Assembly (NCBI RefSeq): GCF_013167455.1
Contig: NZ_CP038328.1
Length of the DNA: 64,000 bases
Direction: 5' to 3' (one strand)
DNA from: Escherichia coli O157:H7
GTDB taxonomy: Bacteria > Pseudomonadota > Gammaproteobacteria > Enterobacterales > Enterobacteriaceae
Part shown: piece by piece, positions 36,001 to 39,000 of the stretch
How positions within the stretch are numbered: position 1 is the stretch's first letter
Layout of the letters: the number at the start of each line of letters is the position of its first letter
Made by a program: the position numbers

Positions 36001-39000
36001 AAACGGCACGGCCATCATATTCATCGGTTATTTCCTTTTAGTGATGAACCTTGTCTCACAGGAATCCAGCCCACAGAAAGGCACCGACAGCCAAACCGGT
36101 ATCCTCAAGGGTCATCCTGAAAGGTTCTGTGTTGTGAGATGCGCGTGAGATGCGCAGAAATGACAAAGGCATCATTACGGTGCCTGAGTGTTAAACAACT
36201 GTTTTGACTTTATTCACTTACATTTTGCCAATTTGCAGGATTTCGTGTTATCCGTCCATGTAAGCAAACCTCATTTTTCAGCAAAATATTCTGCTTATCT
36301 GTCGATTCCCCAGCACGCCAGCGCGCTCTCCTGGTCACGACGGGATACCTGACCGTAACAGTTATTTGAGCGAATACGGCAGTCCCTGCCACCGTCCTTA
36401 ATCCACCAGCGAATCGCTTCGCAGGCACCTTTTCGATCTCCTGCATTAATCCGTCTGTAAAACGTCGACGGGAAACACTTACCGGGGCCAATGTTGTACG
36501 GACAGAATGACGCGATCCCCGCTTTCTGGGGTTCGGTCAGCGGCACTCTGATGTTTTTCTCCACCCATGCCAGCGCCTTATCACGCTCAATGGCGTTAAC
36601 CCGGTCGCATTTTTCCTTCGACAGCTTCATGCCAGGAATAACAGGCTTACCATCCCCCCGGGTGGCTCCACGGCAGATGGTCCAGATACCCGCACCATCA
36701 CGGTATGCTGTGGTGTGGTTACCTTCCTTTTCATCCAGAAACTGGTCGAGGATTTCAGGCGCAGACGCCCCTGCACCAATCAGCGCCAGAACGGCAGCCG
36801 ACAGGCCGTATCTGATTTTTGCGTTCATGGATATTTATCAGGGTTTATCGATTTCAAATCCCTGGATATGTTAAGTCTTCAGGCCAGCGGTGGAGTCTTC
36901 AGAGAACCCGTAATTATTCCCGGTAGTTTTCCTCTGTAGGTTATCAACACATCCTGCGCCTCTAAAATTACGGGGCGCTTTTCCGGCAACGGACCATCCC
37001 CTTCACATAACCCGGCAGCAACATCCATGAAAAACTGCTTCGCCTGCTTTTTCGCCTCAGCTTCGTAAAACTCCAGCGTGGCACCTTCAGTACGGTCAAG
37101 ACTAATCGCCACATCTGGCAACAACAGTGACGGATACCCACCAATTTCCGGTGCCACAGTAACAGTAATCTTATCCGGGTAATTATTTATCCCTTTAACA
37201 ACCAGTTCGTATTTTTTCTTCATCACTTTACTCTCCCCGCGCCGCCTTACGCCGGTCTTCTTTAATCTTGAAATACAGGTTCGTCAGATATGTCAGCAGC
37301 CCAAACAGCAGACTCCCCAGCACGCCTATCGCCACCCACTGGGACGGAGAGACTTTGTCCAGCAGCTGCAGTAACCAGTATCCCGTCCCCACCGCTGACG
37401 TGGTGTATGACACACCCGTTGTGATTTTTTCCATCTGGTACATACCCCGTCTCCCGTTATCCGGAAGCTGACAACAATAAAAAAGCCACCAGTTAACTAC
37501 TGATGGCTCTGATAACTCATGCAGGCGTCTCAGACGACCCACTGACACTACCGGTGAGTTTAACGATACCTTCCATTTGACTGGCTCACTTTTTATGATG
37601 ATGCCGGTGCATTTATCTCCAGCACCAGACTTTCTATCTCAACGCCATACGCTGCATTTTTTGTAACATCCGTCAGCGTCAGCGCATTCAGTCCCAGTGT
37701 CAGACTGTCTTTTATAACCTGGAATGCCGGGCCAGCCACTCCATTCAGTTTCGGAGTAACCGTGGCACTGCCGGCGGTGAACACCAGCTCCAGCGTCTGC
37801 CAGTCGTTACCGTAATCGCCGAACTCCCCCAGCTTCGTGTTTCCGGCTTTCCTGTGATGCATCAGATTCACTCTGCCGTCAGTGGTCTGAGTGAAGTACG
37901 ACATCAGGAACGGATTACCGGTACCCGTCATCGCCACACCATCAGGAACGGGAGCATCCGTATACAGATAAATCCCCAGCCCGAACTGATTGTTGGTCAG
38001 TGCGCCTGACAGGCGGAACTTACAGGTCAGTCTGCCGCCCTGTGTCAGCAGGGTAATTGCGTCATCCACCGGATGCGTCAGGGACCAGGTTTTATTGCTC
38101 TGCCTGGTGATCTTAAATACACCATCTGACAACTGAATTCCGCCATCCTTAATGCTCCAGCCCTGCGCAGCAGCCTCTCCGGCTGCCGGCAGCAGGGAGA
38201 TTGTGCGAACGGACGTATCTGCAGACGGACCCGATGGCGTGTTGCCGCCGGGCGAGGGTTTGATTTCCGGTGCCTTACCACTGATGAAGGCTGAGGTGCG
38301 CCCGGCTGCGTTCAGAATAGCGGTTGCCATACGATCCGGAATAATGCTCCTGCGCGCCCATGAACTGAAATGTGTCGGGCGGTTTGATGATACCTGGTTT
38401 CCATTCGTTCTCGATGCCGCACCGTAATATCCTGATGCCGGAATATCCGGATCTTCTGCCGGCGCGTTAGTGGCGGTATTGACGCCGTTACCGTCTGTCA
38501 TGAAGGGCACAAAATAAACGCCCTCACTCTCCCTGTTTTTGTACGCCCCGTAAATGGTGTTGTACTGGGTGCCGTAGGTATTTTTCCAGTAATACGTCGT
38601 GTCACCACAAATCCACGGCACATCTGCAGCACTGCCACCATGGCACTGCGCGTTAAACACGGAGAGGTCAGCACGAAACTGTGCCAGCATGGCTGTAAAC
38701 AGCGCAGGTTGCTGTGCGTGGGTGGCGGCGCTCATGTCAAACTCTCCCTGCATCCAGCACACCGCCAGCAACACATTTTTCGGGTTCTTCTGTAATGCAG
38801 CTTTAGTGCGCGCAATCAGGTCCTGATATAACGGTTTACCCACACCCCAGCGCGCCGAATCCTGGCTGGCCCCCGCGTCCGCACTGAATGTCCCCTCCGC
38901 GCCCTGGGTGAATGCCGAACCACCACGACAGCATGGTACCAGCAGGATCCCCGCGTTATTCGGGATATACGGAAGCAGTTTTTTGGCAATATGTAAGCCC

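Follow-up and report, generated by a model that had tools for sequence, protein, structure and literature searches.

The closest described relatives of this locus are the lysis cassettes of phage 933W and of the Qin prophage of Escherichia coli K-12. Cassettes of the 933W or phage 21 type run S-R-Rz and combine a pinholin with a SAR endolysin. Qin carries essQ (holin), ydfR (b1555, P76160), rrrQ (lysozyme) and spanins in that order, and its YdfR belongs to the same family as the protein analysed here.

We compared these cassettes with a 64,000-nucleotide stretch of E. coli O157:H7 (contig NZ_CP038328.1), hereafter called the window. Its gene order around ydfR is that of Qin, with the same 4-nt gap from the holin stop to ydfR. 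The two loci differ at the other end of the gene, where the Qin ydfR stop overlaps the rrrQ start (ATGA), whereas a 50-nt leader intervenes in the window. With 933W, the window has in common a near-identical MYQM holin (across 71 aa), a SASA esterase gene upstream of it, an antirepressor gene (Ant) between R and Rz and a GGGGAGAGTAA-NNNN-ATG junction after S. This ATG, at the same position after GGGGAGAGTAA in both, starts R (MSRKLRYG...) in 933W but ydfR in the window, where R (MNAKIRYG...) begins 50 nt after the ydfR stop and, unlike 933W R, lacks a Shine-Dalgarno sequence.

Identity, start and expression of ydfR

The cassette is composed of the following features:

34834..35301, minus strand: Rz spanin, an ORF with a RefSeq 'lysis protein' at the corresponding place; order as in 933W
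34896-35081, minus strand: Rz1, embedded in Rz; order matching 933W Rz/Rz1
35455..36024, minus strand: antirepressor Ant gene between R and Rz (phrog_524, 2.4e-112); order as in 933W
36295..36828, minus strand: endolysin R, a lysozyme of 177 aa (phrog_7 endolysin, 3.9e-64; RefSeq 'lysozyme')
36829..36878, minus strand: leader of R, 50 nt, without a Shine-Dalgarno sequence, ending ...GATAAACCCTGATAAATATCC-ATG
36879..37223, minus strand: ydfR, encoding a 114-aa YdfR-family (DUF1327) protein; stop TGA at 36879-36881
37228..37443, minus strand: class II holin S (S21/933W type), 71 aa from Met1 (37443) or 68 aa from Met4 (37434); stop codon at 37228-37230
37231..37238, minus strand: Shine-Dalgarno sequence GGGGAGAG within the last holin codons, serving ydfR (and R in 933W)
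37482..37510, minus strand: hairpin and T-run resembling an intrinsic terminator, a 12-pair stem followed by TTTATTGTTG

The ORF between holin and endolysin is ydfR (DUF1327), and its product is a small soluble cytoplasmic protein. An earlier note on this DNA had found no motif in the protein that it could place; a profile search assigns it to Pfam DUF1327 (PF07041; E = 6.2e-46, score 155, model positions 1-92 of 93). Its PHROG match is phrog_406 (E = 3.8e-64), and its DNA shows 100% identity to the O157:H7 gene that encodes WP_000731259.1 (RefSeq 'YdfR family protein'). Since RefSeq, Pfam and PHROGs already cover the gene, the family name and the placement between S and R, ydfR matters little for the window alone. 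The holin matches phrog_9876 (3e-40) and phrog_20 (1e-33) and is a RefSeq 'class II holin family protein'. None of YdfR, the holin, Ant and the esterase had a family in NCBIfam, and Rfam gave no RNA family within 36879-37440. Plus-strand ORFs of 34-74 aa antisense to the holin and ydfR were set aside as unsupported.

Two start codons are available to ydfR: ATG at 37223, giving 114 aa, and GTG at 37226, giving 115 aa (ORF 36879-37226). After the holin stop the sequence reads TAA-A-GTG-ATG, placing GTG 1 nt and ATG 4 nt downstream in a frame that differs from that of the holin. ATG 37223 is the likely start codon, because the RefSeq product has 114 aa and this position aligns exactly with the start of 933W R. 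These results bear on several features of the ORF as first described. A protein-coding ORF with a GGAG-type ribosome-binding site between S and R was borne out (GGGGAGAG, 37231-37238), but its length of 115 aa would hold only from GTG; the proposed overlap with the holin stop is contradicted by both candidate starts lying after it; and 'acidic' was an overstatement for a product with a pI of 5.46 and 15 D+E versus 14 K+R.

A comparison of the junction letters, GGGGAGAGTAAAGTGATG (ydfR) in the window versus GGGGAGAGTAAGCTGATG (R) in 933W, shows that ydfR uses the initiation site that the endolysin uses in cassettes without ydfR. The 3' motif of the R leader is common to the window, loci L009, L012 and L013 and phages mEp460 and Evi, and is conserved in ydfR-type cassettes. 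The endolysin is probably of the SAR type, judging from its Gly/Ala-rich N-terminus (MNAKIRYGLSAAVLALIGAGASAP) and from what is known of R21.

On the minus strand between 36000 and 37800, no promoter-like site was found. No terminator-like site flanks ydfR either; the sole strong one on this strand (36000-37800) is the hairpin at 37482..37510, upstream of the holin and downstream of the SASA esterase gene. With neither a promoter nor a terminator of its own, ydfR is read within the Q-dependent late transcript. Its product is made late in lytic growth, and expression from a repressed prophage is unlikely since the gene lacks its own promoter.

Distribution and domain structure of the YdfR family

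YdfR-encoding DNA is widespread: ydfR-like sequence occurs in 3006 of 5426 complete E. coli genomes, which is over half of them, and often in several copies, with as many as 8 places in one genome. Its carriers include Stx1a, Stx2c and some Stx2a phages. Two probes for the holin-to-ydfR junction had matches in 1287 and 2101 of the 5426 genomes, versus 640 for a probe of the direct, 933W-type S-R junction. The order holin-ydfR-(cargo)-lysozyme was present in all five sampled E. coli loci and in phages mEp460 and Evi, and ydfR also occupies the S/R slot in O157:H7, K-12 Qin, BP-4795, Stx2 phage 86, mEp460 and many Stx1a/Stx2c phages. Among phage records matching the cassette, 101 of 369 carry the YdfR protein. 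The proteins of BP-4795 and YYZ-2008 are 98-100% identical to that of the window. The slot is ordinary, and the holin-ydfR arrangement is the commonest in E. coli. The earlier note had taken ydfR for an extra gene in a cassette that normally runs directly from S to R. The latter does not hold for E. coli, given the junction counts, and the supposed insertion is annotated at exactly this place in thousands of genomes. As to whether the ORF might be a common conserved component with a known role, it proved to be a common component but not one with an established role.

In searches for the N-terminal domain, among them a related-locus search run with a sub-alignment of N-domains, homologues of 72-76 aa were located at the I/J and M/L tail-gene junctions, behind the tape measure and behind Rz. 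Because short homologues occupy tail modules, we consider the YdfR family to be mobile, optional late-operon cargo of lambdoid phages and not a lysis-specific part. The short tail-module homologues often adjoin a small convergent gene. Across relatives, the convergent partner belongs to the phrog_10490 family at 8 loci and to phrog_25324 at 2; the window copy has no such partner. The conserved domain and its convergent partner at tail-gene junctions are possibly a more useful lead than the window gene itself.

The protein divides into two parts:

37002..37223, minus strand: N-terminal domain (aa 1-74) of three beta strands and then a long helix, bearing the motif DRxEGxxLEFYEAEA
36882..37001, minus strand: C-terminal region, aa 75-114 (GDGPLPEKRPVILEAQDVLITYRGKLPGIITGSLKTPPLA), pLDDT <50

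The AlphaFold model of the N-terminal domain has a mean pLDDT of 89.5. This domain is the segment common to all distant homologues, with invariant columns in the alignment, and is kept at about 25-46% identity in distant phages, including those with the gene in non-lysis contexts. We found no confident structural relative of the beta-beta-beta-helix domain, and a dsRBD identity (alpha-beta-beta-beta-alpha fold) was rejected, with no confident structural match. Over aa 1-74, the window protein and K-12 YdfR are 46% identical (BLASTP, E = 1e-22); their C-terminal parts are unrelated and unalignable (...KLSEKVESYLQHQYSFKIENPANKHERPHHKYL in Qin versus GDGPLPEKRP...TPPLA in the window). E. coli alleles have a conserved C-terminal region; in other members of the family it is swapped or extended. 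One C-region was found joined to two divergent N-domain clades, a case of mosaic recombination, and in relatives the C-terminal part is replaced or extended to give proteins of 140-385 aa, in a family spanning 72 to 385 aa. For the 385-aa member, Pfam gives only DUF1327.

Across N-domain clades that are ~54% diverged, the reading frame is intact, with no indels or stops and a dN/dS of 0.2-0.3. This retention of frame and the confidently modelled N-domain fold argue that ydfR encodes a real protein. Within clades, dN/dS is 0.4-1.2 with few substitutions, which suggests weak constraint on recent alleles.

Candidate function and competing explanations

The only functional data for the YdfR family concern RNase E and RNA, and all come from the K-12 allele. 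In a two-hybrid assay, residues 1-72 of K-12 YdfR interacted with RNase E 1-597 (PMC13232886, RNA Biol 2026). Rne 1-598 co-purified with K-12 YdfR, as did DNase-resistant nucleic acid or RNA, for which the authors did not exclude a contaminant source (PMC13232886). When overexpressed, K-12 YdfR altered few transcripts and had no effect on growth or lysis, and the RNase E and RNA data stem from overproduced, tagged protein (PMC13232886). With 46% N-domain identity and a different C-terminus, transfer of these results to the window allele is limited, and RNase E binding would be a candidate property there.

Our best explanation, to which we assign a probability of roughly 40%, is that YdfR is late cargo with a host-factor-binding N-domain (RNase E/RNA) and does not act in lysis timing. 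Translation begins at the ATG 4 nt past the holin stop, from the Shine-Dalgarno sequence that the end of the holin gene contains. The conserved unit is the 74-aa N-domain, which elsewhere stands alone at tail-gene junctions or is fused to varied C-terminal extensions. This domain would bind a host factor, for which experiments support a single candidate, the catalytic N-terminal half of RNase E and/or RNA; YdfR would then influence how RNA is processed or degraded in late infection and would not set the time of lysis. Should the RNase E/RNA lead from K-12 also apply to phage alleles, ydfR would be expressed late and modulate RNA decay in the host; an effect on lysis and phage yield would then be conceivable because ydfR shares its late transcript with the lysis genes. 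A broader proposal, which we rate as rather improbable, is that the DUF1327 N-domain is a portable host-targeting module (candidate target RNase E/RNA), moved between late-operon junctions and either fused to C-terminal effectors (114 to 385 aa) or paired with a phrog_10490-family partner. It would then represent an undescribed phage system that manipulates host RNA turnover or evades a host response, with the window copy as a partner-less member.

YdfR might instead be counter-defence, defence or superinfection cargo unrelated to RNase E, again with a portable N-domain fused to C-terminal effectors or paired with a convergent partner. Such a role would be consistent with the presence/absence polymorphism at a fixed slot, the use of at least four different late-operon junctions, the modular build, with lengths of 72 to 385 aa and exchanged C-termini, the N-domain clades recombined onto one C-region, the recurrent convergent partner and the elevated within-clade dN/dS. 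Defence morons, however, are usually expressed from a repressed prophage, which is unlikely for a gene without its own promoter, and the window copy stands without a partner gene. The best PADLOC match was to PDC-M35B, at E = 0.021 and 12.9 bits over 31 residues, and the convergent partner genes of YdfR relatives matched nothing in PADLOC. We regard this explanation as somewhat unlikely.

A role as lysis-timing regulator, suggested in the earlier note, did not find support, as N-domain homologues lie in tail modules far from lysis genes. In explicit form, and by analogy with the T4 cytoplasmic antiholin RIII, YdfR would be a cytoplasmic regulator translationally coupled to the pinholin in fixed proportion, binding S at its basic, cytoplasmic C-terminal tail or delaying the SAR endolysin. 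We consider this quite unlikely, even though ydfR in E. coli directly follows a class II holin, begins 4 nt past the holin stop and shares the embedded Shine-Dalgarno sequence. R in ydfR-type cassettes is moreover pushed onto a leader without a Shine-Dalgarno sequence, so that S and R cannot be expressed in the same ratio with ydfR as without it. A CPRG envelope-integrity screen also has the Keio ydfR deletion among its hits, with ydfR in supplementary hit lists only and absent from the main text, but that hit could be explained by the kan cassette driving downstream rrrQ. Other evidence runs contrary to a lysis regulator: the N-domain is found in tail modules with no lysis genes nearby, ydfR is missing from 933W-type cassettes whose S is near-identical, K-12 YdfR overproduction had no effect on growth or lysis (PMC13232886), and Pfam, NCBIfam and PHROGs show no homology between YdfR and known antiholins.

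Finally, ydfR could be mainly a translational spacer that occupies the R initiation site and uncouples endolysin from holin synthesis, its product being of little consequence, which would suit a gene that takes exactly the Shine-Dalgarno and ATG position of 933W R, leaves R behind a conserved leader without a Shine-Dalgarno sequence (or at an overlapping ATGA in Qin) and is weakly constrained within clades, but which is very unlikely given an N-domain that folds with high confidence, persists in distant phages and non-lysis contexts and shows a between-clade dN/dS of 0.2-0.3, a retention not expected of a mere spacer.

Comparison with known holins, morons and RNase E modulators

Like S105/S107 of lambda and S21-68/S21-71 of phage 21, the window holin has two in-frame Met codons, at positions 1 and 4 and spaced as in S21 (M-K-S-M). 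Both Met1 (37443) and Met4 (37434) were present in 10 of the 10 alleles examined; GGGAG lies 7 nt before Met1 and GGGG 10 nt before Met4, and RefSeq and GenBank annotations disagree on the start. The M-Y-Q-M start would offer two initiation codons, with the longer form gaining no extra positive charge. What defines the antiholins S107 and S21-71 is an extra residue of positive charge at the N-terminus (PMC9636201). Such a residue is found in the M-K-S of the Qin (MKSM) and phage 21 types, whereas the M-Y-Q extension contains no Lys or Arg, so that a lambda- or phage-21-style antiholin role for the longer holin form is not expected on sequence grounds. The M-Y-Q-M start reported earlier is correct, although the end coordinate given with it, 37440, omits the Met1 codon (37441-37443). 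Its reading as a classic dual-start antiholin/holin pair stands for the two Met codons but not for the added positive charge.

A small RNA structure was predicted beside the holin start:

37451..37467, minus strand: 6-bp hairpin CUUCCG-GAUAA-CGGGAG, in both MFE and centroid folds

The stem also exists in 933W, and the modelled hairpin could sequester the Shine-Dalgarno sequence of Met1. RNA folding gave the holin start region a z-score of 0.01, hence no statistical support, and we do not claim a regulated start-choice RNA structure here.

As with the lambdoid morons (bor, lom; Hendrix-type 'more DNA'), ydfR is optional between homologous neighbours and sits at late-operon gene boundaries. Moron-type presence and absence is evident from 933W, which lacks ydfR at an otherwise near-identical S junction. 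Unlike morons, ydfR comes with neither a promoter nor a terminator, and its direction and register are those of the late operon; the term moron, also offered earlier, is apt in the loose sense of optional cargo but not in that of an autonomous transcription unit.

Protein modulators of RNase E include RapZ and RraA/RraB, and T7 gp0.7 is a phage example. YdfR has no relation to any of these in sequence or fold; K-12 YdfR does resemble RapZ in binding the catalytic N-terminal half of RNase E and in co-purifying with RNA (PMC13232886).

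A ydfR gene between holin and lysozyme

The ORF between the class II holin gene (S) and the lysozyme gene (R) is a known gene, ydfR/DUF1327, at its customary position. Its product matched Pfam DUF1327 (PF07041; E = 6.2e-46) and PHROG 406 (E = 3.8e-64), and its DNA was 100% identical to the O157:H7 gene for a 'YdfR family protein' (WP_000731259.1), whose neighbours are annotated as 'class II holin family protein' and 'lysozyme'. What the earlier note had reported as an extra gene in the cassette is therefore real, with small corrections, and optional, with no role assigned; it is not novel. 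All relevant genes of the window's lysis region lie on the minus strand.

Features of the lysis region
37593-39446, minus: SASA-family (NanS-p-like) esterase
37482-37510, minus: strong intrinsic-terminator-like hairpin (12-pair stem and T-run), in the gap after the esterase gene, ~40 nt ahead of the start of S
37228-37443, minus: class II holin (S), N-terminus MYQM
36879-37223 (from ATG) or 36879-37226 (from GTG), minus: ydfR
36295-36828, minus: lysozyme (R), 177 aa
35455-36024, minus: Ant antirepressor, between R and Rz/Rz1
35309-35458, minus: 49-aa hydrophobic ORF, between R and Rz/Rz1
34834-35301, minus: Rz/Rz1

The Ant gene and the 49-aa ORF (35309-36024, minus strand) form a second interruption of the cassette, separating R from Rz/Rz1, and the ant gene of the reference phage 933W is placed much as in the window. 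Just upstream of the esterase gene (39591-39860) are two sRNAs, a full-length STnc100 (39652-39860, minus strand, 175 bits) and an AgvB (anti-GcvB; 39591-39650, plus strand, 56.6 bits against a gathering score of 56), in the part of the prophage that holds stx in Stx phages. Further upstream, two tRNA genes (39973-40046 and 40130-40202, minus strand) resemble the cluster of tRNAs that 933W-type phages carry downstream of Q.

We located ydfR-like DNA in 3006 of the 5426 complete E. coli genomes, at 6413 sites in total and as many as 8 in a single genome; holin DNA occurred at 8843 sites in 2433 genomes. With 124-nt probes whose midpoint was the end of S, and a coverage threshold of ≥80%, we counted the window-type S-to-ydfR junction in 1287 genomes, the junction with a second ydfR allele type in 2101 and the direct 933W S-to-R junction in 640. 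The premise that such cassettes normally run directly from S to R is wrong for E. coli, where cassettes of both kinds occur and those with ydfR are the commoner. All five loci sampled down the similarity ranking had the order holin-YdfR-lysozyme. Among deposited phages, 369 records matched the cassette DNA and 101 encoded the protein, including BP-4795, YYZ-2008, Stx2 phage 86, mEp460 and many Stx1a and Stx2c phages.

Junctions and start codons

The S-ydfR junction reads ...GCG CGG GGA GAG TAA A GTG ATG AAG AAA..., with a Shine-Dalgarno GGGGAGAG within the final holin codons. The ORF does not overlap the holin stop, as had been claimed: GTG begins 1 nt and ATG 4 nt past the TAA. After S, 933W has GGGGAGAGTAA-GCTG-ATG, opening R, and the window has GGGGAGAGTAA-AGTG-ATG, opening ydfR. 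Because the GGGGAGAGTAA context is the same, ydfR takes the exact initiation site that serves R where ydfR is absent, which also speaks for the ATG at 37223 as the genuine start. From this ATG the product has 114 aa, a pI of 5.46 and a net charge of about -1, so that 'acidic' holds only in a mild sense.

In ydfR-type cassettes, R begins MNAKIRYG..., versus MSRKLRYG... in the 933W type. It follows a conserved A/T-rich leader ending ...GATAAAYCCTGATAAATATCC-ATG (36829-36878, minus strand, in the window; also in relatives L009, L012, L013, L004 and L005), in which no Shine-Dalgarno was found, whereas R of 933W uses the GGGGAGAG at the end of S. In Qin, the K-12 cryptic prophage, the R start overlaps at ATGA. 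Since R is displaced to a different start, the presence of ydfR would have to alter R translation, judging from these sequences. We detected neither a promoter-like nor a terminator-like site belonging to ydfR on its strand. The gene belongs to the late transcript, which has to read through the hairpin at 37482-37510.

The dual-start motif noted for the holin is formally present, with Met1 and Met4 in all 10 alleles examined (as MYQM or MKSM), GGGAG 7 nt before Met1 and a run of G 10 nt before Met4. The annotated start differs, giving 68 aa in RefSeq O157 versus 71 aa in 933W. A 6-bp hairpin is able to pair with the Met1 Shine-Dalgarno, and RNA folding of the holin-start region was no better than that of shuffled sequence. 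The antiholins S107 and S21-71 bear an additional positively charged N-terminal residue (PMC9636201); MKSM holins carry one likewise, but MYQM holins do not, and antiholin function of the MYQM holin is unsupported at the sequence level.

Family anatomy and genomic contexts

Searching 1.84 billion representative proteins with a profile recovered only 88 relatives, indicating a narrow family. Members range from 72 to 385 aa and comprise the N-domain (aa 1-74) alone, the N-domain with a GLCEG...TPP segment, or forms with further coiled-coil and unknown domains; at locus L043 the C-terminal part is a separate gene (phrog_1085). The N-domain is predicted to form three strands and then a 24-residue helix (pLDDT 89.5) and carries a nearly invariant DRxEGxxLEFYEAEA motif. 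Residues 75-114 are conserved among E. coli alleles and predicted with low confidence. Two N-domain clades have recombined onto one C-region, which explains the partial DNA matches in the E. coli genome search.

The 72-76-aa forms sit outside lysis cassettes, except in the S-R slot of Evi and L043, where they accompany other cargo.

Positions of 72-76-aa forms in relatives
Between tail assembly protein I and central fibre J: L014, L016 and L017 (L017 assigned from size and order of flanking ORFs)
Between minor tail proteins M and L: L015, L006
After the tape measure: L007, L040, L046
After endolysin/Rz: L023

At eight loci (L008, L014, L016, L017, L023, L040, L043 and L046) the gene following the short one is a convergent, 72-116-aa member of phrog_10490 (motif AATNF...LDEQSGD..FS...INELMQPPV...PFLK), a pair occupying at least four different late-operon junctions; another partner family, phrog_25324, occurs at two (Evi and L007). 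No convergent partner lies beside the window copy. Such contexts mark the family as mobile cargo of late operons rather than a dedicated part of the lysis machinery. A speculative and rather improbable extension is that lambdoid phages use the N-domain as a portable module aimed at host targets, in some cases together with a convergent partner.

In L015, the 71-aa ORF at 5350-5565 (plus strand), flanked by the tape measure gene and minor tail gene M, recalls the N-domain, with strand-like segments followed by ...EIERRAIEDANQQLKDL, and may be a second, more distant copy within the same tail module. Two E. coli prophages (L012, 1254-1526; L013, 1077-1337) have an extra annotated 86-90-aa gene between ydfR and lysozyme, convergent to ydfR and unrelated in sequence to the phrog_10490 and phrog_25324 partners.

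Candidate functions of YdfR

With at most moderate confidence, we propose that YdfR is an accessory protein expressed late in phage growth that would bind a host factor, RNase E and/or RNA. In the only experimental study of YdfR function, residues 1-72 of K-12 YdfR were recovered in a two-hybrid screen and interacted with RNase E 1-597, Rne 1-598 co-purified, and YdfR eluates contained DNase-resistant nucleic acid; on overexpression few transcripts changed and growth was not slowed (RNA Biol 2026, PMC13232886).

No library searched assigned YdfR a function, and no meaningful match came from NCBIfam or PADLOC; cargo serving counter-defence or defence, with no link to RNase E, is an unlikely, still credible reading of the mobile contexts. 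Less probable is a cytoplasmic lysis regulator, a role akin to the lysis timing suggested earlier: the S-R position fits it, and the short forms lie mostly elsewhere. An envelope-integrity screen lists the Keio ydfR deletion among its supplementary hits, a result that could equally reflect kan cassette read-through into the endolysin gene. A mere translational spacer is highly improbable, although R does start elsewhere and dN/dS within N-domain clades is 0.4-1.2 (few substitutions): as for a real protein, the frame is unbroken and without indels across alleles with N-domains ~54% diverged, and dN/dS between the clades is 0.2-0.3 (dS saturated).

The host-factor reading draws on the K-12 protein, whose name-giving gene stands in Qin in the same order, essQ-ydfR-rrrQ-rzpQ/rzoQ. 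The C-terminal parts of the K-12 and window proteins are unrelated; over residues 1-74 the two are 46% identical.
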